Assembly (NCBI GenBank): GCA_937912225.1
Contig: CALDOJ010000034.1
Span: 556 to 64,555 of the forward strand
DNA from: Candidatus Woesearchaeota archaeon
GTDB taxonomy: Archaea; Nanobdellota; Nanobdellia; Woesearchaeales; GCA-2686295
Direction of reading: 5' to 3'
DNA: 64,000 nt
This document shows, piece after piece, positions 18,805-46,773 of this stretch. The notes under the pieces were generated by a model. The model did not search any database. It was not told the DNA's origin and saw nothing but the letters and a program-made list of their open reading frames with translations. Every line of letters starts with the position of its first letter. Within the stretch, counting starts at the first letter, position 1. The position numbers and the translations under genes are program-made.

Positions 18805-18868
18805 ATAAAATGCGACCCCAAACAAAAATAGAATTTTTGAAAATTCATAATTTCAAAAAGGTGAAACC

Positions 18869-19306: not shown

Positions 19307-19307
19307 A

Positions 19308-19922
19308 ATGAGTTTAGGAAGGACAGGTTTTATTGGAAGATTCAAACCATTACATTTGGGAGCTGCTTTAGCACTTGAAACATTATGCCAACAATCAGAT
19401 CACGTAATTATTGGTATTGGCAGTTCTAATAAATATAATGCTCGAAGTCCTTTTACAGCCGAAGAATCTGAAGATATGATTAATGCTGTTTTAGCAGAAT
19501 ATTCTAATTATGAAATTGTTAAAATCCCTGATTTTGCTCAAGAAGCGAAATATAGCGATGGTAATAAATGGAAAAGTTATATGATTCAAGAATTTGGAAC
19601 GCTCGATCATTTCGTTTCAGGAAATACTTATGTTTCAGATTTATTGTCAACTCATTACGATGTTATTCATCCCGCTTCTTTAATTCCTCCAGATGAACAA
19701 ATTCCAATTAGAGCAACAGAAGTTAGAATTAAAATGGCTCAAAACACTGTTTGGCAATCATTAGTTCCTGAAATAGTTGTTGATTATTTAGAGAATAACA
19801 ATCTTGTTGAAAGGTTTAGAAATGAGTTTGGTTTAGAAACACTTACTCACTTAATCAACCATCCAGATTATCTTACTGATGAGAGTACTTTAGCAGAAAA
19901 ATTACATACAACGGAGACATAA
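19308..19922 (+). CDS. Archaeal-type (NadM-like) nicotinamide-nucleotide adenylyltransferase homolog. It carries HLGA in place of the canonical HxGH.
   Basis: GRFKPLHLGAA compared with the archaeal NMNAT consensus GRFQPFHxGH. IRATEVR is the ISxTxIR-like C-terminal motif. Its start follows 1 nt after the Nudix stop. Confidence 0.6.
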   Translation: MSLGRTGFIGRFKPLHLGAALALETLCQQSDHVIIGIGSSNKYNARSPFTAEESEDMINAVLAEYSNYEIVKIPDFAQEAKYSDGNKWKSYMIQEFGTLDHFVSGNTYVSDLLSTHYDVIHPASLIPPDEQIPIRATEVRIKMAQNTVWQSLVPEIVVDYLENNNLVERFRNEFGLETLTHLINHPDYLTDESTLAEKLHTTET

Positions 19923-19923
19923 A

Positions 19924-20694
19924 ATGAGTTTACTAGGTAATTATGAAATCATAAAAGAAATCGCCGAAGGAGGTTTTAGTAGAATATTCCAAGGCAGACA
20001 TACAATTCTTAACGAGTATGCTTGTCTTAAACAAAATAAAGAAGCAACAAAAGATGATGTTGCTTTACTAGAGCTTGAAGCTAAACTTTTATGGAACCTT
20101 TCAGAACATCATTCTATTCCTTCAACAAAAGATTTTTTCAGACTTGGAAAACATAATTGTGTTATGGTGATGGATTATATTGAAGGTAAAACTATCGATC
20201 AAACTATTCCAGATGGCTCCCAAATGCATCCTGAAGAAGCTTGTTGGATTACTGAGCGATTACTCGGAGCATTATATTATGTTCATTATAATGGTGTTAT
20301 TCATTCAGATATTAAACCTCAAAATGTAATTATCGAACCAAAAAAACACGATATTAAACTAATAGATTTTGGACTTGCAACATTCAAACCAACTAGTGGT
20401 TCTAGACCTGTTGGTTACACAGCACAATATGCTGCCCCCGAAGTTTTAGATATGAAACCACCAATTCCTGAAAGTGATTTATATGGTGCAGGCATCATCA
20501 TGTTATATGCGCTAGGTGGAGATATTCCAACAAAATCTTTTCCAAAAAATACTCCAAAACCAATAGTTGAATTTTGCAATCCATTACTCAGATATGATCC
20601 TAAAGATAGACCTAATTGGGATAAAATAAATTTAATTGAAGAGCTGTCAGACGTTAGATACGAGGTTTTCGGAAGAAGACATTGTTCTGAATAA
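19924..20694 (+). CDS. Ser/Thr protein kinase (Hanks-type)
   Basis: Gly-rich loop region (EGGFSRIFQG), catalytic loop HSDIKPQNVII, DFG (IDFGLA) and APE (YAAPEV). Confidence 0.85.
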   Translation: MSLLGNYEIIKEIAEGGFSRIFQGRHTILNEYACLKQNKEATKDDVALLELEAKLLWNLSEHHSIPSTKDFFRLGKHNCVMVMDYIEGKTIDQTIPDGSQMHPEEACWITERLLGALYYVHYNGVIHSDIKPQNVIIEPKKHDIKLIDFGLATFKPTSGSRPVGYTAQYAAPEVLDMKPPIPESDLYGAGIIMLYALGGDIPTKSFPKNTPKPIVEFCNPLLRYDPKDRPNWDKINLIEELSDVRYEVFGRRHCSE

Positions 20695-20760
20695 AAAACG
20701 TATGACTGAGATTTGAGCTAGCGATAGCTCTACAATAAAAAACTAGTAGGAGGAGATAAA

Positions 20761-21759
20761 ATGTACGGATGGGGTTCAGACACCACCAGTTGGAAAGGAC
20801 CTAAGAAATACGAGTATGATTCTGCAAGGAGTCCATACTTGGATAAATTAGGATCTTCTTCCAAAGCAAAAGGTCCGAGAAGTTATATGTCTCGAAGTTC
20901 ACCAGATATGGATTTGGTAAACCCTCGAGGCAAAAATATTACCAGCGATAGTGAAAACCCTATTATTTTAGGTGTTGATGTGACTGGTTCTATGGCTACT
21001 TGGCCGGCAGAGATTTTTGATAGGTTGCCATTGTTCTACCAAACACTTTCCCAGTATCGGAAAGATGTAGAAATTAGTTTTGCAGCCATCGGAGACGCAT
21101 ACTGCGATAGTTACCCAATACAAGTTACGGATTTCACAAAGGAACTGGACTTGGAAAAAAAGCTAAATGCTTTATGCCCTGAAGGAGGCGGCGGAGGACA
21201 AGTTAGCGAGACTTACGAATTATTTGGACATTTTCTGTTAAATCATTGTGAGACTCCAAATGCTAAAACTCCATTCTTATTTTTATTTGGAGATGAAAAG
21301 TTCTACGACACCGTGAATCCAGATCAAATAGAACATTATATTGGTGATAAAGTGCAATCTGCACCTAATTCTAATGAGGTTTGGAAAGGGCTAATGCAAA
21401 AGTTCAATGTTTACTTGTTACATAAACCATACGGTTATGGTGATAGTTCAAGTGTTGACAAAGAAGTAGTTGATCATTGGGCTAAAGCAATTGGTAGACA
21501 ACGAATAATTGAGCTTCCTAGCAAGGAAAGAGCTGTTGATATTGCAATGGGAATTGTTGCAAAGCACTGGGGTAAATTCTCTGATTTTGGAGATAACTTG
21601 AGTGCAAGACAAGATTCTAGTTCTTCAGCTCCAGTGTATGATTCATTGAGGATGATAGATGACCCTTCAACGTCAAATCATTCTGTAGTGACGAGAAAAG
21701 CTAGTGGAGACAAAACTACATCATTAAGCGAAATGTTTGATGATGCTAAAAAACCATGA
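20761..21759 (+). CDS. vWA-domain protein
   Basis: MIDAS DVTGSM, a second MIDAS element (GGGGGQVSETY), and FLFGDE. The C-terminus is Ser-rich. Strong RBS (aggagg). Confidence 0.7.
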   Translation: MYGWGSDTTSWKGPKKYEYDSARSPYLDKLGSSSKAKGPRSYMSRSSPDMDLVNPRGKNITSDSENPIILGVDVTGSMATWPAEIFDRLPLFYQTLSQYRKDVEISFAAIGDAYCDSYPIQVTDFTKELDLEKKLNALCPEGGGGGQVSETYELFGHFLLNHCETPNAKTPFLFLFGDEKFYDTVNPDQIEHYIGDKVQSAPNSNEVWKGLMQKFNVYLLHKPYGYGDSSSVDKEVVDHWAKAIGRQRIIELPSKERAVDIAMGIVAKHWGKFSDFGDNLSARQDSSSSAPVYDSLRMIDDPSTSNHSVVTRKASGDKTTSLSEMFDDAKKP

Positions 21760-21825
21760 AGATGTTCAAAAAAATATTTTCAGGGTGCCAGAAAAATAAA
21801 GTTTTTCTGAGCATAAGTGAGGTAA

Positions 21826-22188
21826 ATGAAAATGGGAGATGAAATTGCAGATAGGGTTGCAGAAGCAAATTATTCCATAGTTACAACTACTAGAGCCAAA
21901 TATTTTGGAGAAGTAGTGCCTAATGGTGGAAAAGGAATAACTATAAATTCTGCGTATGAAGTGCAAGGTGAAAAAGAACCGCAGGCAGTTGCAATGGGTT
22001 TTATTAGAGGCAAACTCTATGGCGAAAACAAGAAAATCGAATTATCGGATGCTCTTGTTGAGTCCGTAACAGATGCTTTAGATGAGACTCGAATTTTGAA
22101 GACTTATGAAGCATTGCTACCTGAAGCAGAGAAACGAGCTCTTGGAATTATGACTTTCAAAGCGCTTGAAGACTTGCTTTCGAAATAA
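21826..22188 (+). CDS. Hypothetical protein (120 aa)
   Basis: ORF preceded by RBS gaggtaaatg. No family recognised. Confidence 0.45.
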   Translation: MKMGDEIADRVAEANYSIVTTTRAKYFGEVVPNGGKGITINSAYEVQGEKEPQAVAMGFIRGKLYGENKKIELSDALVESVTDALDETRILKTYEALLPEAEKRALGIMTFKALEDLLSK

Positions 22189-22226
22189 TTTTTTGAGGGG
22201 CTTTTCGCCCTTCTTTTTATTTTAAA

Positions 22227-23207
22227 ATGAAACTGAACATATTTAAAAAGGAAAACAAAGGTGAACTAAAAATGAAACATATAACAACAAAGATTTTAAC
22301 TAAACCTAAAGCAATAGTTACAATACCTCCATACGCTCCTTTCATCCACGAAGTATTACAGCACGAAGCTGTTTCTGGAATTAGATTAAATACTGTTATG
22401 CCAATTACTGAACCTTTAGAAGATGTTGTTGATAGATTAAATTCTGAAGCTTTAAGATATGGTAAAGAATTATGGGTTGATTTAAAATGTCGACAGTTAA
22501 GAGTTAAAACTTATGGCGTCCCCCCATTTACAGAAATCGAACTAACTCACAATATTAATGTTCGAACTCCTATTACCGCTTATTTTTCTGATGGTAAAGA
22601 ATCTGCCACTGTTTTAAGAGTTGATAAGAATCGATTAATAATGCAAGAAGGTCCTGGTAGAGTTGTTGGGCCTGGCGAATCAGTTAATATTCCTGATTAC
22701 TCTTTGCGTATTGAAGGTTTCTTTACGAATACTGATAAAGCCTATATTGAAGCTGGCAAACAAATTGGTTTTCATAATTATATGCTTTCATTTATTGAAG
22801 ATAAAAATGATAAATCTGAACTGTTAAAGCTTGACCCTAAGGCAATAATCGTTGAAAAAATTGAATCATTGAGAGGAATGGATTATGTTGTTAATGATTG
22901 GGATGGCTCAACAAATTTAATGACTGCAAGAGGAGATTTATATTTAGAATTAAAAATGCCTCATAAAATTGTTCAAGCTCAAGAAACCGTTATTAAAAAA
23001 AATCCTGCTGCGATTGTTGCATCAAGAATATTTAGTTCACTTGCTTATAATCTTGAACCTAGTTGTGAAGATATTGGCGATGTTGAAAACTTGTTAAGAA
23101 CAGGTTACAAAACTTTGATGTTTGGCGACGATATTTGTATGAAGCGAGAATCAATTATTAGTGGTTTAAATTTGTTTGAAACTATGAGTCGGAGGTATGA
23201 GAGATAA
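22227..23207 (+). CDS. Hypothetical protein (326 aa)
   Basis: Long ORF in an operon context. The N-terminal KAIVTIPP...GIRLN...VDLKCRQLR very weakly resembles the N-terminal strand of a PK/HpcH-type TIM barrel. Not assignable. Confidence 0.5.
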   Translation: MKLNIFKKENKGELKMKHITTKILTKPKAIVTIPPYAPFIHEVLQHEAVSGIRLNTVMPITEPLEDVVDRLNSEALRYGKELWVDLKCRQLRVKTYGVPPFTEIELTHNINVRTPITAYFSDGKESATVLRVDKNRLIMQEGPGRVVGPGESVNIPDYSLRIEGFFTNTDKAYIEAGKQIGFHNYMLSFIEDKNDKSELLKLDPKAIIVEKIESLRGMDYVVNDWDGSTNLMTARGDLYLELKMPHKIVQAQETVIKKNPAAIVASRIFSSLAYNLEPSCEDIGDVENLLRTGYKTLMFGDDICMKRESIISGLNLFETMSRRYER

Positions 23208-23209
23208 AA

Positions 23210-24268
23210 ATGGTTTACAAAAAAGATCAATACATCGGAACTTTACTTGGTTGTGCTATTGGAGATTCTCTTGGCATGCCTGTAGAGACTTGGAAGCCTG
23301 AACAAATTCGAAAGTATCATGGTAGAATTGAACGTCTTGTTGCACCAATCCCTCCCACTGATAAAGATGGTAAAGTTGTTTCTAAAGATGAGTATGGGAA
23401 GATTCGTCCAATTAGAGATTTTAAGAAAGGAGAATACACTGATGATACTATCCTAACTCTTGCTTTAGCCGAATCAATTATTGAAATGAAAGGTTTAGAT
23501 TTAAATCATATTGCAAAAACTCAATTAGAAGCTTTTCAAGCTAGAAGACAAAATGGCGGTTTTGGTTGGACTACTAAGACTGCTTTTGAAAAATTAGAAC
23601 AAAGTGAAAGTCCTTTAACAACTGGTTTACATGAAGGAATTGGTAATGCTCCTCCTATGAAAATGTCTCCAATTGGTTTGTACATGGATTCAACTGGTGA
23701 TGTTGATGGAGGCATTGAATATGCAAGACGAATTTCAGAAATGAGCCATCTTGATCCACGAGCAGTTGCTGCAGGTATTTTGCAAGCACGAATGATCTAT
23801 GAATTACTACAAGATAATTATACATCTCAATATAGCGATAAATTTATGGAGAAAATCATGAATCAAGTTAAAGAACATGAATTAAAATTAACTAGCAAAA
23901 ATAGTTTTATTGAAGAAGGAAGACTTCAAGATAAATTACAATGGATTAATTCTCATAAATATGCGCCCGATGCTGAAGCTTATGAAATTCTTGGTAATTC
24001 TAGTAAATCTCACGAATCTTATCCTTTCACAATTTTCATGTTTCAAAAGTATTGGAACGAACCAATAACCGGGTTGTTAGAAACTATTAATTACGGAGGA
24101 GATTGTGATACAACTGGTGCAATGTTTGGAGCTCTTGCTGGTGCAAAGCATGGAATGTTTTTCTCCAAAGATTGGATTCGTGATTTAAAAGATTCGGATA
24201 CAATTATTGAAGTGGCAGACAAATTTTACAACACAAAATTATATAAAGTTTTGAGGTTTCCAAAATGA
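23210..24268 (+). CDS. ADP-ribosylglycohydrolase family protein (ARH/DraG-like)
   Basis: N-terminal signature LGCAIGDSLGMPVE and C-terminal GGDCDTTGAMFGALAGAKHG. These are the two metal-binding motifs of the ARH family. Confidence 0.85.
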   Translation: MVYKKDQYIGTLLGCAIGDSLGMPVETWKPEQIRKYHGRIERLVAPIPPTDKDGKVVSKDEYGKIRPIRDFKKGEYTDDTILTLALAESIIEMKGLDLNHIAKTQLEAFQARRQNGGFGWTTKTAFEKLEQSESPLTTGLHEGIGNAPPMKMSPIGLYMDSTGDVDGGIEYARRISEMSHLDPRAVAAGILQARMIYELLQDNYTSQYSDKFMEKIMNQVKEHELKLTSKNSFIEEGRLQDKLQWINSHKYAPDAEAYEILGNSSKSHESYPFTIFMFQKYWNEPITGLLETINYGGDCDTTGAMFGALAGAKHGMFFSKDWIRDLKDSDTIIEVADKFYNTKLYKVLRFPK

Positions 24269-25278
24269 TGCCTATGAATAATAACAGCAGAATTCTGATC
24301 ATATCAAAAACTACTGAATTAGAAGCATATGAAATGATACATGGTGCAACTGTAGAAGAATATCTTGAAAGAACTAATAAAAACATTTTAGATCTTGAAC
24401 GAAGAAGAGATAGACATAATGAAAGTTTAGAAATGATTAGAGATGCTTTTGAAAGCAGAGGCGTAAGACCCGCAGTTTTTAGAAATCAAAGTATTACTAA
24501 AAGAGATTTACAACAAGACTGGGATTTCATTATACCTGTTGGTGGTGATGGAACTTACATGGACGCTGCAAGATATATTCTTGATGATACACCTTTATTT
24601 GGAATTAAATCAAATCCTTATTCTGCAGGAGGACATTATAACACTCATTTTTCAAATGCAGAAGAACATATTGCAAGATTATTTTCTGGCGATTTTAGTT
24701 TGGAACAAAGAACGCGTATTGAAGGTCGAGTAAAAAATGGTTATAACATTGTTGATTTAGCTTTAAACGAAATCATGGTGGGCGATAAAAATACTGCTGG
24801 TTTTGCAAAAGCAGACATACATATTAATGGCGAAGTTTATAGGACTGGTTCTTCAGGTGTTGTTGTTGCAACCTATAAAGGTTCTACTGGGTGGGCATAT
24901 AAAATACCAATCATAGAAGCAGATAATGAGCGACTTAATCCTATCAAAGAAGCTTTAAGAACTGCAGGATTAGAAGACGAAGCTAATAAAATTAGAATTG
25001 TTTCTGAAGATGCAGAATTTAAAGATGGAGAAGAAAATATTATAAGATATAAAGTTCGCGAAACAGGTCATGAAGGCTCAGGCATCGGTCATGATTATGG
25101 AATTTTAAAACCAGGAGAAGAAATGACAATTGTTTCTAAAATGTTTTCAGGCGGTAGTGCTATTTTTGACGGAAATAAAGAAACCATGTCAAGACACAGA
25201 GTTTATGACTTGCCTCTAAGTTCTGAAATAAAAATAAGAATTTCTGATAAACCATTATATGTTGTGCAGTTTGATTAG
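24265..25278 (+). CDS. NAD kinase homolog with a ~90-aa N-terminal extension
   Basis: GGDGT (IIPVGGDGTYMDAARY), NE motif (ALNEIMVGDK) and ATYKGSTGWAY, which resembles the TPTGSTAY substrate loop. Its start overlaps the ARH stop (ATGA). Confidence 0.75.
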   Translation: MMPMNNNSRILIISKTTELEAYEMIHGATVEEYLERTNKNILDLERRRDRHNESLEMIRDAFESRGVRPAVFRNQSITKRDLQQDWDFIIPVGGDGTYMDAARYILDDTPLFGIKSNPYSAGGHYNTHFSNAEEHIARLFSGDFSLEQRTRIEGRVKNGYNIVDLALNEIMVGDKNTAGFAKADIHINGEVYRTGSSGVVVATYKGSTGWAYKIPIIEADNERLNPIKEALRTAGLEDEANKIRIVSEDAEFKDGEENIIRYKVRETGHEGSGIGHDYGILKPGEEMTIVSKMFSGGSAIFDGNKETMSRHRVYDLPLSSEIKIRISDKPLYVVQFD

Positions 25279-33227: not shown

Positions 33228-33237
33228 TGTTCAGAGA

Positions 33238-35676: not shown

Positions 35677-35698
35677 TTAAGTGATAATAAATTGGGTC

Positions 35699-36835
35699 TT
35701 AGAAATAATTCCTAATCATATCAGTAAAAGCCCTAGCAATATTATTCAACTGCCTTTTTTCAAACTTTGTTTCAGCAAGAGTTTGACCCTCTAAAGGTTT
35801 ATCAGAACCTACACCAGCAAAGAAATATCTTACTGCATCAACACCATCATAATGATTATGATAACTAGCCATAGGGCCCCATTCCATATCAATAGTTGTA
35901 GCACCAAGATCTCTTGCTTCTTCTAACACAACTCTTTTTTGTCTTAAGATTGATGCAGTATTCAAAGTCGAACCTTCATGAAATGAACCAACATATTTTT
36001 CAAGCATTTCCGTAGCTTTAGGATTAATTAATAATTGATTATTAATTGGATAAATTGTTTGTAAATTATCCTTCAATAATTTCTCATCCATAAATCCTGT
36101 TGGTACAAATACATCTCCAACATTAGCTTTTGAATCTAAAACTCCAACTTTACCATAATGAAAAATATTAACCCACGCACCCAATACTTCATTATTAGTT
36201 GCTAAACAAAATTGTTCTATAACATTCTTTGCCTGGTCAGCAAAAACATAATCAAAATTAACAGCAAAATATCCGCCCATGTCAAGCAATCTGTAATTCA
36301 AAAAATCATTTTTTATTTCATCAATTACTTCAATACCTTCATCTAATGGAAAATTATCAAACGGTCCAAAAATAACATTTAAAACACCATCATGAGTAAA
36401 CTCTTCAACATCCAATCTATCATAAGCCTCATTTACAAGTTCAAATGCTAAATCTCTAAATCTTGCACTTGCAAATTTTTGTTCGCCACCAAAATGTTTT
36501 ATATCCCAGTTTAGTTTTTGTTCTGTTGCTCTTCCTAAAATACCAAAATGATGCCTGATTCTATCATAACGTATATCGCCTTTAGTATTTATTACATGAA
36601 GCGTTCCTGTTGCTTCATCATAGAAATTGCTTTCAACAGAAGCAATTGGTTTAAACTTGAGAAAGCCCCCCATCTCAGGTTCTACTTCCTCTGGTTTAAA
36701 TCCATTATGAAGAACTAAATGTTCTAAGTTCTCAAGTTGTTTTGCCCTGATTGCCTCATCAGGATGCAGTTGTCTATCAACAGTATATTGCACTCTTTTT
36801 TCATCATCCATTAAATCTGTATATATATCAGTCAT
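35699..36835 (-). CDS. Phosphorylase-superfamily (PNP/MTAN-like) nucleosidase-domain protein with an N-terminal extension
   Basis: VGDVFVPTGFM (resembles GDVVV), ATTIDMEWGPMA (resembles the VEMEAAA catalytic-region motif) and FFAGVGSD (resembles RAISD), all in the C-terminal half. Confidence 0.65.
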   Translation of the reverse strand: MTDIYTDLMDDEKRVQYTVDRQLHPDEAIRAKQLENLEHLVLHNGFKPEEVEPEMGGFLKFKPIASVESNFYDEATGTLHVINTKGDIRYDRIRHHFGILGRATEQKLNWDIKHFGGEQKFASARFRDLAFELVNEAYDRLDVEEFTHDGVLNVIFGPFDNFPLDEGIEVIDEIKNDFLNYRLLDMGGYFAVNFDYVFADQAKNVIEQFCLATNNEVLGAWVNIFHYGKVGVLDSKANVGDVFVPTGFMDEKLLKDNLQTIYPINNQLLINPKATEMLEKYVGSFHEGSTLNTASILRQKRVVLEEARDLGATTIDMEWGPMASYHNHYDGVDAVRYFFAGVGSDKPLEGQTLAETKFEKRQLNNIARAFTDMIRNYF

Positions 36836-36836
36836 T

Positions 36837-37037
36837 TTAATAGTAAGTATTCCTCATTCTTCTTTCTCTTCTGCCAGAGCCATATAAATTAAAATGGTCT
36901 CCTGCTTTATCCCAAATAGCTCCAGCTCCAGCTCCAAGAGCAGTATATCCTAAAAGAACTAATCCAAATAAGCCTATACGGAATTTGTTTAAATTAGATC
37001 CTGCTTTAAAGTTCATTTCATAACCATCCATAGCCAT
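36837..37037 (-). CDS. Small membrane protein (66 aa)
   Basis: One Gly/Ala-rich TM helix (IGLFGLVLLGYTALGAGAGAIW). Its stop is 1 nt from the downstream start. Confidence 0.4.
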   Translation of the reverse strand: MAMDGYEMNFKAGSNLNKFRIGLFGLVLLGYTALGAGAGAIWDKAGDHFNLYGSGRRERRMRNTYY

Positions 37038-37070: not shown

Positions 37071-37850
37071 CTACCTATTTTTACCACTCTTTAGTGGTTT
37101 ATTCAAATATTTTTGCATATGATTGAAAGGATCGTCATAACAAAGACAACCAAGAGGAGTTAAAAAATCAGAGAATGTTTGTGCATAAGCAACCAAATCA
37201 CTTATTAAATCTTTATGGTCTTGAAAATTTTGATAAACAACTTCTCTGCCAACAACTCTACCTTTGTTAAGTTCAGATTTATTAATACAATGATCTTTAA
37301 TTAACCAATCAATTGTTTCAGTATCATTAGGATCAAAAATAGCACCAAAATCAATTTGATTAATTTTCAAATCACCAGTTAATAAAACATTAACAGCTCG
37401 CCTATCTTTCAAAGCTAAAGTGTTAACAAGCTCCATTGAATAACCAAAACTATATGCAACTTCCAATTCTTTACCTTCAGGAACATAAAATTTTTTGCCA
37501 GGAAGACCTTCCATCATGACGAGATTTTCATTATGAAGGCCATCCCAAGTAATAAAATTGTGATTCGCACCAGCCAAAATATTATCCAAAGCCATACCAA
37601 GAGCTTCTCTAGAAGCACCTTCCAAAGAAGTTTTAACATAAACATCTTTCTTAGAACCGTTCTTAAGAACAGCTTCATACTTATCAACAGAATAACCAGT
37701 TTTAATTTCAGAAACGTGTTTGAACTTCACAGGTTTTTCACCAAACAAAACACCAGATAATTGTTTAATTCTTCGCGTACGATAATTAAAATGACTAGGT
37801 GCAGGCGGAAGACGAACACGACCAAGAAGTTTATCCAAATCAACATTCAT
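37071..37850 (-). CDS. PI3/PI4-kinase-like atypical kinase-fold protein, group A paralog 6
   Basis: DVYVK Lys, alphaC Glu (SREALGM), catalytic loop ALKDRRAVNVLL and IDFGAIF. Confidence 0.7.
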   Translation of the reverse strand: MNVDLDKLLGRVRLPPAPSHFNYRTRRIKQLSGVLFGEKPVKFKHVSEIKTGYSVDKYEAVLKNGSKKDVYVKTSLEGASREALGMALDNILAGANHNFITWDGLHNENLVMMEGLPGKKFYVPEGKELEVAYSFGYSMELVNTLALKDRRAVNVLLTGDLKINQIDFGAIFDPNDTETIDWLIKDHCINKSELNKGRVVGREVVYQNFQDHKDLISDLVAYAQTFSDFLTPLGCLCYDDPFNHMQKYLNKPLKSGKNR

Positions 37851-38605
37851 CGAGCAACCCCCAAATAATCACACATATAAACAAACGGATCATCACAAAC
37901 AGGTTTTTGAACACAAGTGAAATCTTCAAAAGACCTTGCATAAACAATTAAATCTTCAATTAAATTTTTATTATCTTTAAAATTTTGACGCACCACTTCT
38001 TTACCAGCAACTCGTCCTTTATTTAATTGAACAGAATCCATACTATGAAAATCAATTAAATATTCAATAGAACCATTATCACCAGGATAAAAAAGCGAAC
38101 CAAAATCAATATGATTAATATTAAAGGTTTCAGTTAACAAAACATTAGTAACCCATCTATCTTTAAGAGATAAAGCATTTACTAATTCCATCGAATATCC
38201 AAGATTAAAAGCAACTTCTTTTTCTTTGCCTTTTGGCACATAAAAATCCTCTCCAGGAAGATTTTCCATCACCAGATTATGATTACCAAAACGATCATCC
38301 CATAAAAAATAATTATGACCTGCATCTTGCAACATATTTGCCAAAGTCATTCCAAGCGCTTCTTTGTAAACACCTTCCCAAGACTGTTTAACATAAAAAT
38401 CCTTTTTTGAACCATCTTGAAAAGTAGCTTTATACATATGAACAGTTGATGCATGACCAAGATCACAAGAATGACTAATTTTCTTAGGCATTTCATCAAA
38501 TAATAAACTAGATAATTGTTTAATTCTACGCTTATAAGTATTAACATTAAAAGGCTCAGGAAGTTCAACAATTCCAAGATGTTTATCTAAAACAATATCA
38601 GTCAT
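37847..38605 (-). CDS. PI3/PI4-kinase-like atypical kinase-fold protein, group A paralog 5
   Basis: DFYVK, LKDRWVTNVLL and IDFGSLF. 4-bp overlaps on both sides. Confidence 0.7.
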   Translation of the reverse strand: MTDIVLDKHLGIVELPEPFNVNTYKRRIKQLSSLLFDEMPKKISHSCDLGHASTVHMYKATFQDGSKKDFYVKQSWEGVYKEALGMTLANMLQDAGHNYFLWDDRFGNHNLVMENLPGEDFYVPKGKEKEVAFNLGYSMELVNALSLKDRWVTNVLLTETFNINHIDFGSLFYPGDNGSIEYLIDFHSMDSVQLNKGRVAGKEVVRQNFKDNKNLIEDLIVYARSFEDFTCVQKPVCDDPFVYMCDYLGVAR

Positions 38606-39399
38606 CGAGAAACCCCCAAATAAAGTTTCATATGAGTAAAAGGATCATCTAAAATATAATCATCCTCTTCAGAACACATTTTCTTAGAAAAATAATTAAC
38701 CATTGATTCAATCTCAGGTTGATATTTTAAAAAATTATTACGAATAAGTTTATAGCCATCAATTGTTCCTTCAGAAACAGCATCTTCATCTAAATGAAAC
38801 CATTTAATATGGTAATCTCCTTGAAATAAATCCTTATGATAAAATAAACAATCATTATCAAGATGTCGAACAGCTCCTTTTTCAGATACTAGTATGTTTC
38901 CAGCATGTCGATCATCTAATGCTAAAGTTCTAGCCAATTCTAAAGCAATGCCAAAAGAATAACTAATTTCAGTTTTTAGAGTTTCAGGAAAACCCAATCT
39001 AGAACCTCGCAGTTGATCAATAACAATCATTCTTTCAGGAGTTGAATCATCTAAAGAATCTGAATAAAGAAATTTTTGTTCTTCACCAAGTAATAAATTC
39101 TGTAAAGTTATGCCAACCGCTTCAAACAAAGGATGAGATTTTGGTTCTTTTGCAAAGAAAGTTTCTGAACGTCCATTTTCAAGCAAGATATTAAAACCTG
39201 TAATAGTAGTATAAATCTCCTTTAACATAGCAATACCAAAACTTTTAATTGAAGCTATTTCATCAACTGAAACACCATATAAATCTGATGCAACTTTCTT
39301 TTGAAGAGCTAAATCCTCATGAAAAGTTTTAAGACTGGGAAGAGCAACTTCATAACTAAACAATTCTTTTACAGTATCAGAAAGTTCAGGCAAACTCAT
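38602..39399 (-). CDS. PI3/PI4-kinase-like atypical kinase-fold protein, group A paralog 4. Its DFG position is degenerate.
   Basis: TFFAKEP, LDDRHAGNILV and HLDNDCLF, which has no DFG. Confidence 0.7.
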   Translation of the reverse strand: MSLPELSDTVKELFSYEVALPSLKTFHEDLALQKKVASDLYGVSVDEIASIKSFGIAMLKEIYTTITGFNILLENGRSETFFAKEPKSHPLFEAVGITLQNLLLGEEQKFLYSDSLDDSTPERMIVIDQLRGSRLGFPETLKTEISYSFGIALELARTLALDDRHAGNILVSEKGAVRHLDNDCLFYHKDLFQGDYHIKWFHLDEDAVSEGTIDGYKLIRNNFLKYQPEIESMVNYFSKKMCSEEDDYILDDPFTHMKLYLGVSR

Positions 39400-40148
39400 C
39401 GCTTAACCCCCAGATAATCACACATGTAAGCAAACGGATCATTCAAAACATCAGGTCTTGAAGCAAAAGGTATTTGTTCATCAACCCAATCAACAACCAT
39501 TTTAATATCATCTTTATTATCAATAAATCGTTGACGAATAGCTTCATGAGCTGAAAGTCTTCCTTTGTTAAATTTACGACGACTTAAACCATAAGCATCT
39601 GCAACTTTCGCACCAGTTATCAAATCTTTTTCATCAAATAAACATTCATAATCAATATGTCTGATAGTTCCTCTCCCATCAACTAATAAGTTTCCAGTAT
39701 TTCTATCTTTTAAATGCAAAACCATTTCTAATTCTGAAGCCACACCAAGATTAAAACTGGCTCTTTTCTTACGACCTACATTTTTAAAAATTCTTCCAGG
39801 AATCGCTTCCATCAAAATAGAACTAGGATCTGTTGTATAATCATCAAGTTGAGGAATTGCATAACTCCAATTCTCACCAGTTAAAACATTGTTCAAATAC
39901 CAACCAAGTCCTTCTAATAAAGAACCTGTATGAAAACAATCTTTAACATAAAAAGTCTTATTAGAACCATCACCCAAAGTTAATTCATAACCTTTAATCA
40001 TTTCTTGATTAGTAATTAAACTACTAGAAACAATTTTTTCATCAATACCAAATAAAGCTTTAGGAACATCAGCCATTCTTTTCTCAGAATATACATCATA
40101 AAAAGAAGGAACATCTCCAATCCGAAGTAATTTTTCAGGCGAAGTCAA
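39396..40148 (-). CDS. PI3/PI4-kinase-like atypical kinase-fold protein, group A paralog 3
   Basis: TFYVKD, LKDRNTGNLLV and HIDYECLF. Confidence 0.7.
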   Translation of the reverse strand: MTSPEKLLRIGDVPSFYDVYSEKRMADVPKALFGIDEKIVSSSLITNQEMIKGYELTLGDGSNKTFYVKDCFHTGSLLEGLGWYLNNVLTGENWSYAIPQLDDYTTDPSSILMEAIPGRIFKNVGRKKRASFNLGVASELEMVLHLKDRNTGNLLVDGRGTIRHIDYECLFDEKDLITGAKVADAYGLSRRKFNKGRLSAHEAIRQRFIDNKDDIKMVVDWVDEQIPFASRPDVLNDPFAYMCDYLGVKR

Positions 40149-40936
40149 TTTATTTCACCCTCTAATTTTTGTTTTATATAATCAAAAGGAGAAATAGTTT
40201 CAAACAATTCAGATCTTAATAAACCATCATAAGCCCAGTTAGCCAAATCGCGAATTAGTTCTTCATTAGTTTTGAAATTAACTCTCATCTCTTCACGAGC
40301 ATCAAGTCTGCCTTTTTCAAATTCCTCTTCAGAATAACCACTATTCTTAACTAATTGTTTACCAGTTCGATCATCCCAACCAGCCCAAAATAATGCTCCA
40401 AAATCTATATTACGAATTACTAAGTTATCATCAATTAACATATTAGGACTTCTTCGATCAGCAAGATTTAAAATTTTGGCAGATTCAAAAGCCCGACCCA
40501 TTGAATAAGAAATTTCAGTTAAGAAATCATAATTAACATTAAAAGTTGTTCCAGGAACTTCATCCATAATAACCACATTAATAAAATTATCAAGCAAATC
40601 CAATTTATTAACTAACATCAAGAAATTTCTGTCTTCACCAGTTAATAGATTATTCAAAGTAATACCAACTGCTTCTTGAAACGCACCAGTCACATAGCAA
40701 TCTTCTTCTTCTTTAACATAATAAGTTTTAGAAGTTCCATCTTTAAGCATTAATTTATGACCTGCAACGTTCGAATTTCCAGATGCAAAAGGTTCATCAA
40801 TAAGAATATCGTCTGAATCAACCCCATACATTTCTCTAGCAACATATCTGCCTAAATTTTGAGAATCAAGAAGAGTAACTTCATCAGTAAAAGGCCTATA
40901 ATTCAACAAGTCTTTCATTCTATCTGGAAAACTCAT
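40145..40936 (-). CDS. PI3/PI4-kinase-like atypical kinase-fold protein, group A paralog 2
   Basis: TYYVKE, LADRRSPNMLI and IDFGALF. Confidence 0.7.
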   Translation of the reverse strand: MSFPDRMKDLLNYRPFTDEVTLLDSQNLGRYVAREMYGVDSDDILIDEPFASGNSNVAGHKLMLKDGTSKTYYVKEEEDCYVTGAFQEAVGITLNNLLTGEDRNFLMLVNKLDLLDNFINVVIMDEVPGTTFNVNYDFLTEISYSMGRAFESAKILNLADRRSPNMLIDDNLVIRNIDFGALFWAGWDDRTGKQLVKNSGYSEEEFEKGRLDAREEMRVNFKTNEELIRDLANWAYDGLLRSELFETISPFDYIKQKLEGEIN

Positions 40937-41736
40937 TTCTCAGCCTCCAAATAAAGTTTCATATAAGAAAAAGGATCTTCAATATGCTTTTCATCATCCA
41001 AATATTGCAAACCAGATTGTTCGCTAAAATATGTTAATACATCTTTAATTAATGATTCATTATCTAAAAAATTTTTAACAATTATTTTTCTTGCATCTGA
41101 TTGTCCTTGTGAAACTAATTCTGCATCAAGTCCCAGAACATATCCTCCTTTAAAAATATCTTTTAACATTCCAAGATTCCAAGAATATTCTTTATTAAAA
41201 ATAGTTTCATAATCAACATTTCTAATAATAGAATTTTCACAAATAACCAAATTTGAATTATTACGGTCGGTTAAAGAAAGAGTTTTAGCCAATTCTAAAC
41301 TAGCACCAAAACTTTGACTCATATTAGTACTAGCATCATTAAAATATGTCACACTAGTTCCAATATCTTCCATAGCAACATAACCAAATTTCCAATCACC
41401 AGTTTCAGATCTGCTAGCAACAAAGTTATGGTTTTCACCTAAAAGAATATTGCTTAAAGTCCAACCAACAGCTTCACTTAAAGAACTTTCAAGACATTTC
41501 TTATAATAAAATTGTTTAATTAAACCATCCTTAAAAAGAGTTTCATATACTCGAGTGTTAGGAGACCAAACAGTATCTAAGAAATTAACAGTTATAATTT
41601 CTGATTCAGGAACACCATAAAGTGAACTTGCAACAGACTCCATAATATCAGGATTATTTTTAACTTTTGAAAAATCTGGAAGAGAGGTTAACCTAAGTAA
41701 ATCTTCAATCTTTGTTTGAGTTGATTGTTTAGTCAT
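40933..41736 (-). CDS. PI3/PI4-kinase-like atypical kinase-fold protein, group A paralog 1
   Basis: QFYYKK, LTDRNNSNLVI and VDYETIF. Confidence 0.7.
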   Translation of the reverse strand: MTKQSTQTKIEDLLRLTSLPDFSKVKNNPDIMESVASSLYGVPESEIITVNFLDTVWSPNTRVYETLFKDGLIKQFYYKKCLESSLSEAVGWTLSNILLGENHNFVASRSETGDWKFGYVAMEDIGTSVTYFNDASTNMSQSFGASLELAKTLSLTDRNNSNLVICENSIIRNVDYETIFNKEYSWNLGMLKDIFKGGYVLGLDAELVSQGQSDARKIIVKNFLDNESLIKDVLTYFSEQSGLQYLDDEKHIEDPFSYMKLYLEAEK

Positions 41737-42224
41737 TTTATTCGACGATATTCAAAAACATTTTTTTTTAAGTATAATTGCATATGACTTGGTAAATGTT
41801 CACCAATCTGATTTATTGCATCAGGCGATTGGTTATGAATAAGTAAACTATGTAAAGCTTCAACAGGAATATTTTGAAATGAAATAAATTCTCTAAAATA
41901 ATCAGTCGATTTTCTATAAGGATTTCTTTCAATACCTAACTCCTGAGCAAATTTTTCAGCCATAGATTCATAACCCGAATATTTGAACAATTCACTATTT
42001 TCTTTAATATAATTATTATCAAGAACGAATCCAGTACTACCACCCCAAAAATCTACATTTGCTTTTTTTGGCATTGGAAATTTTTCTTCCCAATAAGCAA
42101 AACAAATTCTATCATTAGATGATTCAAAATAATTTTTATTACCTGTTTCAGAAGGTAATCTTAAACCTTCACTAAGTATAGGAAGGACAGATATCACTTC
42201 AGTCATATGTGTCAATATCGGCAT
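41733..42224 (-). CDS. Small paralog family member 3 (~163 aa, unknown domain)
   Basis: Alignment with its two paralogs places the true start at MPILTHMTEV, 1 nt after the upstream stop. Conserved motifs are THxT, LPSETGN, DRI(C/S)F, NIPVE(A/G) and a C-terminal HMQLYL...YRRIK. Confidence 0.6.
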   Translation of the reverse strand: MPILTHMTEVISVLPILSEGLRLPSETGNKNYFESSNDRICFAYWEEKFPMPKKANVDFWGGSTGFVLDNNYIKENSELFKYSGYESMAEKFAQELGIERNPYRKSTDYFREFISFQNIPVEALHSLLIHNQSPDAINQIGEHLPSHMQLYLKKNVFEYRRIK

Positions 42225-42225
42225 T

Positions 42226-42750
42226 TTATTTAATCCTCCGATAAAATGAGTCATCAGTTTGTTTAGTATATAATCCCATATGTGCTGGCAAAATTGATTT
42301 AATTTTTTGAAATTCTTCTGTCTCAAGAGATAATATTGTATTAAATCTAGAATCTAAAAATAAACTGTGAATTCCTTCTACAGGAATATTTTCAAAAGAT
42401 ACTACTTCATTAAAATTAAATCTTGGAACTTCTAAGTCTATAACTTCCATTCCTTGTCTATTTGCATAATCAATTACTTCTTCACTCTTAGTAATATAAC
42501 ATTTGAATTCGTCTTTATTTTCAGATATGTACTTTGGGTCTAAAACTAAATTAATGTCATTATTCCAACCGCTTAAATAAGTATTTTCGCTTTCTAAATC
42601 TAAATCAGGATTACATGAAAAACTTATTCTATCTGTAGGAAAAAACCAATCCCAATTACTATTACCTGTTTCTCGTGGTTTTTTAATCCCATTTTTAAAA
42701 ATAGGTTCTAGATATTCCAGATAAGTTGAATGTGATAAAACTCCGTTCAT
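42226..42750 (-). CDS. Small paralog family member 2 (174 aa, unknown domain)
   Basis: KPRETGNSNW, DRISF, NIPVEG, AHMGLY...FYRRIK. Confidence 0.6.
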   Translation of the reverse strand: MNGVLSHSTYLEYLEPIFKNGIKKPRETGNSNWDWFFPTDRISFSCNPDLDLESENTYLSGWNNDINLVLDPKYISENKDEFKCYITKSEEVIDYANRQGMEVIDLEVPRFNFNEVVSFENIPVEGIHSLFLDSRFNTILSLETEEFQKIKSILPAHMGLYTKQTDDSFYRRIK

Positions 42751-43256
42751 TTCATCCTCCGATAAAATAAATCATCTGTTTGTTTTGAATATAATCGAAT
42801 ATGAGCAGGTGCTTGTTTTTGAATTTCATTAATTTCAGATTTTGAATCTGATTGGTGAAATAATGCATATAATCCTTCAACAGGAATATTTGCAAATGAA
42901 ACTACTTCATTAGGAACTTCATGTTTGGTTGGATTTTTAATAGTCCTAATTCCAAGTTCTTTGATAAATGTTTGAAAAATATCTTCACGCGCAGGTTCTG
43001 CTTCAAAATTATTCAAATTATCTTTTAAGTAATCAGGATCGACAAAGAATCCAGTTCTTTCTCCATACCAAAAATCATTAAAACCAATACTTGTTTTTGG
43101 AAAAGGTGTTTCTTCAGGATGAAGTAAAAAGCTTATTCTATCACTCGCAGAATACTCTGGCCAATTACAATTACCAGTTTCAGAAGGTAATTTTAATCCT
43201 TCTTTAAGTATTAAAGGCACATATACATTCCGTGTTGCATGAGTTAGAATTGTCAT
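42747..43256 (-). CDS. Small paralog family member 1 (~170 aa, unknown domain)
   Basis: The true start is probably MTILTHATRN. LPSETGNCNW, DRISF, NIPVEG, AHIRLY...FYRRMK. Confidence 0.6.
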   Translation of the reverse strand: MTILTHATRNVYVPLILKEGLKLPSETGNCNWPEYSASDRISFLLHPEETPFPKTSIGFNDFWYGERTGFFVDPDYLKDNLNNFEAEPAREDIFQTFIKELGIRTIKNPTKHEVPNEVVSFANIPVEGLYALFHQSDSKSEINEIQKQAPAHIRLYSKQTDDLFYRRMK

Positions 43257-43257
43257 T

Positions 43258-44160
43258 TTATTCTCGCAACACCTCGGCCTTTGATGAATTTGTATAAGAA
43301 TGAATACTATTATGAGGATCGTAATCGAAGTTAGCACCTCTATGAACTGCATAATTAAGAAGCTCTTGAATTAAACCTTGATTAATGGCAATATTTTTAG
43401 CAATTAGTTCTCTGCCAAATAACTTACCAGCTTCAAATTGTTCTTCTTCACAATCTGAAAGCGTAATATCATAACATGGATCAACTTGTAAGCCTACTTC
43501 TTCACAAAAAATTGTGCTAAAATCAATAGGCACAATAGTTTCATCATCACCTAAAATAATATTCTCATCATGTCTATCATCTAAACCTAAAGCAGTTGAT
43601 AGTTCTGAAGCAACACCATAATTAAAAGATTCTTTATCTGAAAAAATATAACCCCTTTCCATATTTGCAAAAGTTTTCCCAGGAATTCCAACTGATAAAA
43701 AAGTTCCAGTTTCTTCACAAGCAGCAAATCTATAAGTTTCAGTTTCATTATCTGAAGATAAAATATCTCCAAGAACACTTCCTAAAGCATCTACTATAAT
43801 CGGCCTTTGCCAAGCAGGTTTAGCATAAAAATCGCTCTTTGTACCATCTTTAAATTCTACAAGAAAACGAGCATAGAAATCACAATCTTCATAAAAAAAA
43901 TTAGAATCTTTTTCAATTGAAACAACTGATTCTGGTTCACAAGAATATAAAGAAGCAGCAACATCAACCATGTCTGCAGTTCCTGAAACTATATTAATAA
44001 TATGTGGTAAATCTTTCAAGCTTAACATTGAACGTAAATAATTTTCAGGTAAATCACCATTCCAAACAGTTTCAGGTTTATGATAAGCTAAAGGTAAACG
44101 TTCATATTCTTCTAAATAACTTGACAGGTCTGAATTGTTTGAATTTTGTGTGTTAGTCAT
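43258..44160 (-). CDS. PI3/PI4-kinase-like atypical kinase-fold protein, group B paralog 3
   Basis: SDFYAKP, LGLDDRHDENIIL and PIDFSTIF. The start is probably MTNTQNS. Confidence 0.7.
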   Translation of the reverse strand: MTNTQNSNNSDLSSYLEEYERLPLAYHKPETVWNGDLPENYLRSMLSLKDLPHIINIVSGTADMVDVAASLYSCEPESVVSIEKDSNFFYEDCDFYARFLVEFKDGTKSDFYAKPAWQRPIIVDALGSVLGDILSSDNETETYRFAACEETGTFLSVGIPGKTFANMERGYIFSDKESFNYGVASELSTALGLDDRHDENIILGDDETIVPIDFSTIFCEEVGLQVDPCYDITLSDCEEEQFEAGKLFGRELIAKNIAINQGLIQELLNYAVHRGANFDYDPHNSIHSYTNSSKAEVLRE

Positions 44161-44161
44161 T

Positions 44162-45652
44162 TTATTCTTGCATTGACCTCCTGTGCGCACTAACATAAGA
44201 ATCTATACTTTCTTCAGGTTTATGAGTAAAAGATGCGTTTTTATGATGTGCATAAGCAATCAACTGATGTATTACGCCTTTATTTTGTTCATAATTCTTC
44301 GTAATCATTTCTAATCCCATTTGTCTTCCTGCTTTAACCATTTCTGCATTAGCAGGTTCTTCATGACTACAAGAATATTCACTAGTTGAAGAAGTACGAA
44401 ACAAAGTTCCAAAATCAATAGGAATAACCATATCATCATCTGCAATCATAATATTTTGATCGTGCCGATCAGTTAATCCTAAAGCTCTTGATAATTCTAT
44501 TGCAACTCCATAATTAAATGCTGCTTGATCTGAAAAATCTTCTCCCTTATGTTTAAAGGTCGTAGCAGAAATTCCAGTTGAAGCACAAGTTTTATTTTCT
44601 TCGCAACCTATAAATGAGTAAGTAGTTTTTGGAAGATGACCTTTAGTTAGAATATAAGCTAAAGTATTACCAAGTGTTTCAGAAACTACTGATCCTTCCC
44701 AATTTTTTTTAAGATAAAAATCACTTTTCACACCATTTTTAAAATCTATAAAAAAATGATTAACAGTACCATAACCAAATTTTCTATCTTTCTTAATTGA
44801 TTTAATAGATTTAATATCACAAGAATATAATTTTGCAGCAATTTCTTTACGCTGTTTATAAGTTCCCATACCAACACTATAATAAAATCCAACATCAGCA
44901 GATATATCAGGCAAATCAACTAAACCCAATATTTCTCGAAGAACTTCTTCAGAAGTTTCACCAGTCCATACAGGATCAGGTATTGACTCTGGTTCTGGTT
45001 TAGGTTCAGGTAATTTAATTTCAACAGGATCAGGCCTATCAACAACCATTCCAATATTTTGCAAAGGAACTTCTTCTTTAGGTAACTTAAGTATAGCGCC
45101 TAAATCATAAGGATTTTGAAATCCAAATATATTAAGAAAACCATAAGGCTTATTAACATGATAAGGATTAACTGCAGGTTCTTGTTCTTTTCCTGCAATA
45201 ATATCTTCAAGTAAAAGAGGATTATCAACCACATATCTAATTTGTTTTTCATTTTGTTCTTGTTTATTATTCATACCGTGCAAGAATTTTTTATCTTTTT
45301 CTCGCAGACCACCATAAGGTTGAATCTTTGGGTTTACCAAAAGCTCCATATTTCTAATAAAACCAAAATCATAATTAATAAGTTCAACTTTTTCTTTCTT
45401 GGGTTGTTTATGCACAAGCTTTTCTTTACGATCAACAGGAGCAAAATCTAAAAGAGGATCAACTAAATCTTGTTGAAGATAATTTATGGCATTATCAGGA
45501 TTAATACCACCCATTGCATACATCATAGCGCCAGCCAAAGGTAACATCATATTTCTGGCTCTATTTAGTCCTCGATGTTCTGCATTTTCATTAGACTTTT
45601 TTTTAGGAGAGTTATGAGATTCTTTGTTTAATCTTTGTTTAAGTATCATCAT
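44162..45652 (-). CDS. PI3/PI4-kinase-like atypical kinase-fold protein, group B paralog 2, with a ~200-aa basic or low-complexity N-terminal extension
   Basis: SDFYLKK, LGLTDRHDQNIMI and IPIDFGTLF. Confidence 0.7.
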   Translation of the reverse strand: MMILKQRLNKESHNSPKKKSNENAEHRGLNRARNMMLPLAGAMMYAMGGINPDNAINYLQQDLVDPLLDFAPVDRKEKLVHKQPKKEKVELINYDFGFIRNMELLVNPKIQPYGGLREKDKKFLHGMNNKQEQNEKQIRYVVDNPLLLEDIIAGKEQEPAVNPYHVNKPYGFLNIFGFQNPYDLGAILKLPKEEVPLQNIGMVVDRPDPVEIKLPEPKPEPESIPDPVWTGETSEEVLREILGLVDLPDISADVGFYYSVGMGTYKQRKEIAAKLYSCDIKSIKSIKKDRKFGYGTVNHFFIDFKNGVKSDFYLKKNWEGSVVSETLGNTLAYILTKGHLPKTTYSFIGCEENKTCASTGISATTFKHKGEDFSDQAAFNYGVAIELSRALGLTDRHDQNIMIADDDMVIPIDFGTLFRTSSTSEYSCSHEEPANAEMVKAGRQMGLEMITKNYEQNKGVIHQLIAYAHHKNASFTHKPEESIDSYVSAHRRSMQE

Positions 45653-46773
45653 TGCACCTCTTTTTCTAAACTAGAACTCTTAACATTAGTAGCATAAGAA
45701 CTAAGAACAGTTTCGGGTTTTTCTGAAAAATCTGCACCAAGATGTTGAGCATAAGATATAAGTTCAGATATTAAGCCTTTATGTCGTTCATAATTACTTG
45801 CAATTACTTCTCTGGCTTTTAATTTACCTTCTTCAATTAAATCAGTATTTGTTGGTTTAACCGCACCAAAATCATGATACCGTTCATAATTAGGAGGATT
45901 TTCAGGACCAAATATAGTATCAAAATCGATTTGTACAACAACATCATCAGATCTTAAAAGAGTATTAAGATCGTGTCTATCACGCAGGCCTAAAGCAAGC
46001 GATAATTCTACTGCCATGCCATAACTTAAAGTTGCTTTATCAGAAAACTCTTCAGGTTTAACATCTTTAAACATCTTACCTTCAATTCCAACTGATGCAA
46101 AAGTTCCTGTTTCTTCACATGCTGCAGATTGATATGTGTCTTTAAGAGTTTCATCTCCTAAAAGATTCAATAAAGCATTTCCTAAAGCATCCACGATTAC
46201 TGGTGCATTCCAGGAAGGTTTTACATAGAAATCACTTTCAGTTCCATCATCAAACTTGACTAAAAAACGGCCGTAATTATTTCTGTTTGAAAAATTAAAA
46301 TTTCCATCTTGAACAATGGAAACAACTTCATCAGGTTTACATCCATATACGGTTGAAGCGAGTTCTACCAAATCAGTTTCGCCTGAAACAATTTCTCTAC
46401 TATCAGGCAAATTAACTAAACCTAATAATCCTTGTAATTTTTCTTCAGGAATACTTCCAATCCAAGTAGCAGGATGTTTATTAGATTTAAGAGGATTACG
46501 AGAAGAATACTTCTGTATTGTGTTTCTATGTTTTAAATTTTCATCAAAATATTCTAAATATAATTCTAAATTTTCAAAAGTTAATCGATTATCAATAGCC
46601 CTAACTATTTCAGAATGATATTGAGCCATTAATTGATCTTTATCAGTATGTACTTCTTCGTCAGAAAAATCATCTTCAGGAGAAAGTATACTCAGACGTT
46701 CTAAAGCAGGATCTACATAAGGTAAAAACAATTCAACTGGATTATAACATTCAAATAAATTGGCTTTAAGCAT
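45649..46773 (-). CDS. PI3/PI4-kinase-like atypical kinase-fold protein, group B paralog 1. First gene of the array.
   Basis: SDFYVKP, LGLRDRHDLNTLL and QIDFDTIF. Confidence 0.7.
   Translation of the reverse strand: MLKANLFECYNPVELFLPYVDPALERLSILSPEDDFSDEEVHTDKDQLMAQYHSEIVRAIDNRLTFENLELYLEYFDENLKHRNTIQKYSSRNPLKSNKHPATWIGSIPEEKLQGLLGLVNLPDSREIVSGETDLVELASTVYGCKPDEVVSIVQDGNFNFSNRNNYGRFLVKFDDGTESDFYVKPSWNAPVIVDALGNALLNLLGDETLKDTYQSAACEETGTFASVGIEGKMFKDVKPEEFSDKATLSYGMAVELSLALGLRDRHDLNTLLRSDDVVVQIDFDTIFGPENPPNYERYHDFGAVKPTNTDLIEEGKLKAREVIASNYERHKGLISELISYAQHLGADFSEKPETVLSSYATNVKSSSLEKEVQ

Follow-up and report, generated by a model that had tools for sequence, protein, structure and literature searches.

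Three small proteins in a woesearchaeal kinase operon belong to a rare family of putative ADP-ribosyltransferases related to DarT and Tpt1

What are three small, mutually similar proteins doing in the middle of an array of kinase-like genes, and do they share with these kinases a C-terminal peptide that would bring both to the same place or partner? The question is posed by contig CALDOJ010000034.1 of a Candidatus Woesearchaeota archaeon (assembly GCA_937912225.1), of which a stretch of 64,000 nucleotides (nt; contig positions 556 to 64,555) was analyzed. We refer to this 64-kb stretch as the window, and coordinates are window positions unless another locus is named. On its minus strand, a run of 12 translationally coupled genes, mostly with 4-nt overlaps, comprises 9 kinase-like genes and the genes for 3 small proteins, S1 (42747..43256, 169 amino acids [aa]), S2 (42226..42750, 174 aa), and S3 (41733..42224, 163 aa), all on the minus strand. 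Judging from sequence profiles and structure models, the best explanation of the whole, and one that we consider likely, is that S1-S3 are ADP-ribosyltransferases (ARTs) that use nicotinamide adenine dinucleotide (NAD+) and are translated together with PI3K/PI4K-like kinases.

The 3 genes are tightly packed. The ATG of S2 overlaps the stop codon of S1 (ATGA), S3 starts 1 nt past the stop codon of S2, and the stop codon of S3 overlaps the start of the kinase-like gene K267. The mechanical list of open reading frames (ORFs) contains longer, 197- and 201-aa versions of the small ORFs, but the shorter starts are favored because the homologs all start with M-x-[IL]-L-x-H. An earlier, sequence-only reading of the window had noted that the 3 small proteins align with one another, and this is borne out by pairwise BLASTP (37% with E = 3e-31, 43% with E = 9e-36, and 32% with E = 2e-21); with similarity this far past chance, S1-S3 are, on sequence grounds, true paralogs. 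The motifs listed in that reading are all found in the alignment of S1-S3 (alignment A1), namely, (T/S)HxT, P(S/R)ETGNxN(W/Y), DRI(S/C)F, (V/I)SFxNIPVE(G/A), and, toward the C terminus, P(S/A)H(M/I)xLY and YRR(I/M)K, although the first of them, originally given as THxT, is not strict (SHST in S2). Foreign or mobile origin of the S genes was considered and rejected, the GC content of the region (approximately 0.30) being equal to that of the flanks. The C-terminal Arg-Arg codons of S1 and S2 (cgg agg) also make a GGAGG Shine-Dalgarno sequence (42747-42765 and 42226-42245, minus strand), located 5 and 10 nt, respectively, ahead of the following ATG; in S3, the Arg-Arg codons are cgt cga, with no embedded Shine-Dalgarno sequence. 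The idea that the terminal YRR(I/M)K is kept solely on account of this embedded signal was also rejected, as (E/R)R(I/V)K is kept in single-copy members of the family.

To which family, then, do the 3 paralogs belong? Searches of Pfam, NCBIfam, and PADLOC returned no match for S1-S3, and at the level of these libraries the description of an unknown domain was apt; specifically, no ART family of Pfam, including the DarT and Tpt1 models, was matched at E <= 1. Relatives are few. A word-indexed homolog search yielded almost exclusively self-matches, and the relatives came from searching 1.84 billion cluster representatives exhaustively with a hidden Markov model (HMM), which recovered only 53 at E <= 1e-3. 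Searching with alignment A1 detected no relatives in GTDB genomes or viral contigs, and what a metagenome scan added was limited to a second array, already found, and a piece of the window locus. By these sequence criteria, the family is real but rare. All residue counts and the family profile reported here are based on 40 aligned members (alignment A2), and an HMM of the ART family matches S2 and S3 with E values of 1.2e-45 and 2e-47, respectively. When all 40 members were scanned against Pfam, the sole match to an ART model was one weak PARP hit (E = 0.23). Two further observations concern alignment A2 (proteins P0009-P0053): 7 of the 40 members weakly match Pfam DUF5846 (best E = 0.0014), and P0051, a protein of 938 aa, contains 2 ART-like domains without the His.

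Run against PDB sequences, the 40-member profile matched DarT1 of Escherichia coli C7 (PDB 8baq) with E = 5.3e-6, collinearly over residues 3-157 versus 16-196, a relation already hinted at by a profile of S1-S3 only (E = 0.098). The next match was a segment of approximately 24 residues of KptA, "LYHGT..ILKEGLKP" (E = 1.3). The AlphaFold2 model of P0001, which is 98% identical to S1, displays the ART fold with its split beta-sheet at good confidence (predicted local distance difference test score [pLDDT] 88.6; predicted template modeling score [pTM] 0.85), and both the fold of the NAD+ lobe and the H-G-T...ILKEGL signature of Tpt1/KptA are recognizable. An ART-like domain had been put forward in the sequence-only reading as a speculation; given the profile matches to DarT1 and KptA and the confident AlphaFold2 model, that idea appears correct, and the alignment of the active sites, described below, adds strong support. 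Thus far, profiles and model agree that S1-S3 are very probably ART-fold relatives of DarT and Tpt1. On sequence evidence, they represent a rare, unannotated family, the nearest characterized relatives of which are DarT1 and DarT2, ARTs acting on bases of single-stranded DNA (ssDNA), and the NAD+ lobe of the RNA 2'-phosphotransferase Tpt1/KptA. The chemistry and the fold are already known, and the family itself is absent from the domain libraries searched; our literature searches found no description of this ART family, nor of an operon combining ARTs with PI3K/PI4K-like genes.

The active site can be followed residue by residue. In ARTs of the H-Y-[EDQ] division, the triad consists of a His in strand beta1, a Tyr or, alternatively, a Ser in beta2, and Glu, Asp, or Gln at the start of beta5, and the window paralogs have H-(S/C)-E at these positions. 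His6 (S1 numbering here and throughout, unless stated otherwise; codon at 43239..43241, minus strand) is located on beta1, is present in 40 of 40 members, and aligns with the His of "LFHFT" in DarT1 and of "LYHGT" in KptA. Position 42 on beta2, a Ser in S1, is Tyr in 23 members, Ser in 9, Cys in 5, and Phe in 3, and position 117 is Gln in 24, Glu in 10, Cys in 3, and Gly in 3. Glu117 (codon at 42906..42908, minus strand) is invariant in the 3 paralogs and in the subfamily of tandem-array members, which, the window paralogs included, combines H-(S/C)-E with an invariant D39-R40. The HMM alignment to 8baq, mapped residue by residue, places E117 of S1 at SEQRES position 153, which corresponds to the catalytic E152 of DarT1; the SEQRES index equals the residue number plus 1, an offset that also reproduces the published DarT1 residues F18, R35, R52, D54, and S63. 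E152 has been described as the "ART-characteristic glutamate" and is replaced (E152A) in the crystal, and, in parallel to the window proteins, DarT1 carries Ser in the position that is Tyr in the H-Y-E class (PMC11543638). As for D39-R40 of the array subfamily, sequence comparison makes it only a candidate counterpart of the essential residues of DarT1.

Despite this kinship, S1-S3 differ from both of the characterized groups. DarT1 and DarT2 (DUF4433, PF14487) are guanine- or thymine-specific ADP-ribosyltransferase toxins that modify ssDNA and belong to DarTG or DarT-NADAR systems. The PF14487 model is not matched by S1-S3, their relation to DarT being visible only when the profile is compared with the PDB sequence. 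Whereas DarT is accompanied by an adjacent DarG macrodomain or NADAR antitoxin, the immediate neighbors of S1-S3 are kinase-like genes, and no Pfam match to Macro or NADAR was obtained among the scanned window ORFs of at least 110 aa or at the other loci of the family. Members of the small family are instead found in tandem arrays of 3 to 4 genes, singly in archaeal housekeeping contexts, or, here, within a kinase operon. S1-S3 are related to DarT but do not belong to its family. Tpt1, in turn, consists of 2 lobes, of which the N-terminal one binds RNA and contains an R-H-R-R tetrad. S1-S3, with 163 to 174 aa, lack this winged-helix RNA lobe, their N terminus (Met1...His6) being beta1 of the ART lobe; they do not match the Tpt1/KptA model PF01885, and the small family keeps Glu or Gln at the classical catalytic position of ARTs.

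The second half of our opening question concerns the C terminus, where a peptide, HMxLYL, apparently common to S1-S3 and the group-A kinases, had been proposed as a docking, targeting, or secretion signal or as a binder of a shared partner. There is indeed a literal likeness between S3 (SHMQLYLKK) and the kinases K259 (NHMQKYLNK) and K265 (THMKLYL); each motif is conserved in its own family, the kinase tail being preserved in a 60% ortholog (P0056) and, in a looser form, in all 9 paralogs; and both are located near the C termini of co-expressed proteins. However, the likeness does not reach significance. In ungapped BLOSUM62 comparisons with the 9 kinase tails, for which random 30-aa windows from the same contig served as the null, the tails of S1 and S2 score 22, a value reached by 37% of the random windows. 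The S3 tail scores 33 (0.3% of random windows), but unrelated sequences do as well, with 1 of 54 unrelated C termini and 1 internal window of S1 reaching 34. The BLASTP high-scoring pair between the S3 and kinase tails has an E value of 0.33, and profile-profile comparison of the ART and kinase families with hhalign aligned only the 4 columns of M.LY (probability 0.19%, E = 0.31), with the spacing from Pro to Tyr off by one residue between the 2 families.

Nor is the element the same structure in both families. In the model of P0001, H(I/M)xLY forms beta-strand 154-158 and the terminal YRR the last strand, 165-167, placing H152-I-R-L-Y156 of S1 (42789..42803, minus strand) in the ART core and not in a free tail, whereas in the model of K265 (pLDDT 81, pTM 0.84), DPFTHMKLYL is an alpha-helix (residues 253-261, local pLDDT of approximately 91). 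Moreover, P.H(M/I).LY is conserved across the ART family (P150 in 36 and H152 in 30 of 40 members, with L155 and Y156 conserved too), including members that lack a kinase-like gene in the surrounding 6-10 kb, among them archaeal single-copy genes, and it has a counterpart in DarT1, the C-terminal YPQTIQRYY of which aligns with it. Because of the different fold state and the family-wide conservation, the tail is not equivalent in the 2 families, and each motif is therefore intrinsic to its own fold. In the ART family, P-x-H-(M/I)-x-L-Y...RIK would correspond to the last 2 beta-strands of the domain, inherited from a DarT-like ancestor, and, from alignments and models, its likeness to the C-terminal helix of the kinases, DPFxxMxxYL, appears coincidental. 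The proposal of a common signal is largely refuted by these computations; we consider it very unlikely, and the shared tail offers no worthwhile lead as a targeting signal.

What connects the ARTs with the kinases is thus the operon. Upstream of S1, 3 PI3K/PI4K-like paralogs of 374, 496, and 312 aa (43258..46773, minus strand) carry DRHxxN and IDFG motifs, and 6 more, of 267, 263, 250, 265, 252, and 259 aa (37071..41736, minus strand), follow S3 with successive 4-nt overlaps. The motifs of these kinase-like neighbors, GxxDRHxxN and IDFG, are accompanied by a profile match to PI4KA (E = 3.3e-6), and matches of the kinase-like ORFs to Pfam PF00454 range from weak to gathering level, with only 1 of the 5 ORFs scanned reaching the gathering score. 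Compared with the PI3K/PI4K/PIKK proteins that PF00454 describes, the neighbors are minimal, stand-alone domains of 250-270 aa in a prokaryotic array of 9 genes. That homologs of the small proteins always occur together with such kinases, suggested as a check in the sequence-only reading, does not hold. HMMs of both families, run over all fetched loci, detected kinase-like ORFs only in the window and in the near-identical loci L001, L015-L020, and L035; outside these, the ART family is found without them. The association of ARTs and kinases is thus specific to this organism.

From these elements, a tentative mechanism can be sketched. Each of S1-S3 would bind NAD+ via the His on beta1 and the "ILKEGL" region of helix 1, and Glu117 would promote the departure of nicotinamide and the transfer of ADP-ribose to an acceptor. 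We infer NAD+ use and transfer because each of the 3 proteins keeps a complete H-(S/C)-E triad, and we lean toward the view, predicted from sequence and model, that they are active NAD+-dependent transferases. Given their relatedness to DarT and Tpt1, the most plausible acceptor would be a nucleic acid, with protein as the alternative; a nucleic-acid target is a possibility that we put forward with considerable doubt. Owing to their translational coupling, the ARTs and kinases are expected to be made together and probably act in one process: 3 diverged ARTs produced in fixed proportion with 9 diverged kinases might assemble into a hetero-oligomeric machine or offer a panel of specificities directed at a common class of targets. 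The nearby genes for glycohydrolase, NUDIX, and NAD synthesis proteins could provide for reversal, clean-up, and resupply.

Several observations weigh against this reading. Kinase co-occurrence is confined to this organism and near-identical relatives of it. The family as a whole does not keep the catalytic Glu (Gln in 24 of 40 members and Cys or Gly in 6 of 40), so that the ancestral activity may have been something other than classical transfer. Compared with DarT1/DarT2, S1-S3 are approximately 40 residues shorter, and only about 122 residues superpose, so that the DNA-binding ARTT scaffold may be missing; of the DarT1 residues R52, D54, M71, N104, and E152, only the last is aligned, the others being without demonstrated counterparts in S1-S3, with R52 and D54 located in a stretch that is inserted with respect to the family profile. 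The P0001 model was built from only 40 sequences. Finally, the glycohydrolase is encoded 18 kb away in another operon, and its link to the ARTs is accordingly thematic only.

There are also other explanations of what S1-S3 may do. They could be catalytically dead or non-transferase ART modules, serving as sensors of NAD+ or ADP-ribose or as regulatory subunits of the kinases, comparable to pseudo-PARPs. We consider this unlikely: in the window paralogs and the array subfamily, His, Ser/Cys, Glu, D39, and R40 are kept at overall identities of 28-44%, and this invariance points to selection on the active site. Alternatively, NAD+ could be used in a non-classical manner, by an NAD+ glycohydrolase acting as a depletion toxin, by Tpt1-like ADP-ribosylation of phosphates, possibly kinase-installed ones, or by Arr-like modification of small molecules. 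We regard this group of activities as distinctly improbable. A role of S1-S3 as DarT-type toxins, in toxin-antitoxin or anti-phage modules whose antitoxins would be encoded by their neighbors, would fit their closest sequence relative, DarT1, being a toxin and defense effector, as well as the presence of diversified tandem paralogs, which are typical of conflict systems. However, neither a DarG macrodomain nor NADAR was found among the scanned window ORFs, PADLOC gave no match, viral contigs yielded no relatives, the base composition is not foreign, and single-copy members reside in archaeal housekeeping neighborhoods, and we judge this explanation to be extremely improbable. NAD+-dependent ADP-ribosyl transfer in concert with the kinases is the reading that we retain.

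The other loci of the family bear on its biology. A second array of 3 ART genes (170, 164, and 166 aa) is present at loci L002-L007 and L034 (positions 1202-2710 of L002 and L034 and 8993-10501 of L003), flanked by a membrane protein and unknowns. At these loci, an NrtR-NUDIX gene is located at 1.7 kb, and isochorismatase (nicotinamidase-like) and NMNAT-like genes at 2.7-4.5 kb. The tetranucleotide correlation of this array with the window is 0.987, compared with 0.988 when part of the window's own contig is used; the coverage in the same assembly is 18.5 versus 19.6; and the two co-occur in at least 4 samples. As composition, coverage, and sample co-occurrence agree, both probably come from the same genome, in which case the organism would have at least 6 ART-family paralogs. 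A further tandem array, of 4 genes (L014, positions 30-2026), consists of P0005, P0006, P0008, and a truncated copy resembling P0004. Its second gene shares 62% identity with the middle gene of the L002 array, and in the tree this is the only pair for which orthology by position is clear between arrays.

Single-copy members occur in different surroundings. P0009 adjoins aCPSF1, HisRS, and MetAP, and Glu-containing archaeal members lie between rpS6e and aIF5B, with aIF2-gamma nearby, at L008-L010 and on a JGI 3300071358 contig (P0030 and P0052); one further single-copy member has a nondescript context. These neighborhoods hint that part of the family has a housekeeping or translation-linked role; as a more remote possibility, those flanked by rpS6e and aIF5B/aIF2-gamma could be endogenous ARTs with the translation apparatus as their target. 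The family exists both as single genes in archaeal housekeeping neighborhoods and as tandem arrays of 3 to 4 diverged copies with a full H-S-E site, and what recurs across its contexts is tandem multiplication and nearness to NAD metabolism. The ADP-ribosylation of nucleic acids, known from DarT and Tpt1, is a recent field in which enzyme families are few, and S1-S3 and their relatives define another minimal DarT/Tpt1-related ART family, invisible to the domain libraries searched. The arrangement in which its genes are co-translated with those of 9 PI3K/PI4K-like kinases is unusual, and the genes are clonable candidates for discovering new ADP-ribosylation substrates and cross-talk between kinases and ARTs in uncultivated microbes.

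The link made in the sequence-only reading to NAD and ADP-ribose genes elsewhere in the window is real. A plus-strand operon (17033..25278) encodes a radical SAM protein, NadE, a NUDIX protein, an archaeal-type NMNAT, a Hanks-type Ser/Thr kinase, an ADP-ribosylglycohydrolase, and an NAD-kinase-like protein, together with 2 unknowns and a protein resembling the pyruvate kinase barrel. This operon is convergent with the minus-strand gene run (25293-46773), the end of which it faces. The ADP-ribosylglycohydrolase (23210-24268, plus strand) is DraG/Tri1-like and matches PF03747 with E = 7.6e-55. Further upstream, on the plus strand, are the regulator NrtR (NUDIX plus winged helix; 4591-5280) and the de novo NAD pathway NadB-NadA-NadC (7785-11344), with NadA approximately 50% identical to its best GTDB matches (Methanomethylovorans and Clostridia). 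In the convergent operon, the genes from NadE to the NAD-kinase-like gene (17914..25278, plus strand) are candidates for NAD supply and for an eraser of the modification. It is conceivable, although we think it rather unlikely, that the 12-gene operon and the convergent operon with its NAD supply, NUDIX, and ADP-ribosylglycohydrolase genes constitute an undescribed dual-modification system, in which diversified kinases and ARTs act on the same targets. If true, phosphates installed by the kinases might be ADP-ribosylated in the manner of Tpt1, or phosphorylation might gate ADP-ribosylation, with a dedicated eraser and replenishment of NAD+.

The array is followed on the same strand by a 66-aa hydrophobic ORF and a 378-aa PNP_UDP_1/DUF6909 phosphorylase-like ORF (35699..37037, minus strand). 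The region downstream of the array (25293-36835, minus strand) encodes, besides this phosphorylase-like protein, a 764-aa AAA+/MCM-like ATPase, a 580-aa AAA ATPase, and 5 proteins without a family match; the array and these downstream genes may form one large system of approximately 21 kb. No rRNA or tRNA was found within the window. Its gene content is rather bacterial in character, with a CshA-like helicase, a PcrA/UvrD-like helicase, NrtR, and GrpE, as well as a cold-shock protein and a FemAB-like gene located just outside it, whereas the NMNAT is of the archaeal type. Divergent from the kinase operon (46920-47792, plus strand) is a gene for a 290-aa protein composed of repeated units resembling "(D/E)xGSG.V.V.G.NA.V.VDAGSG", which weakly matches DUF3060 and SPP1_Dit and is probably a beta-solenoid.

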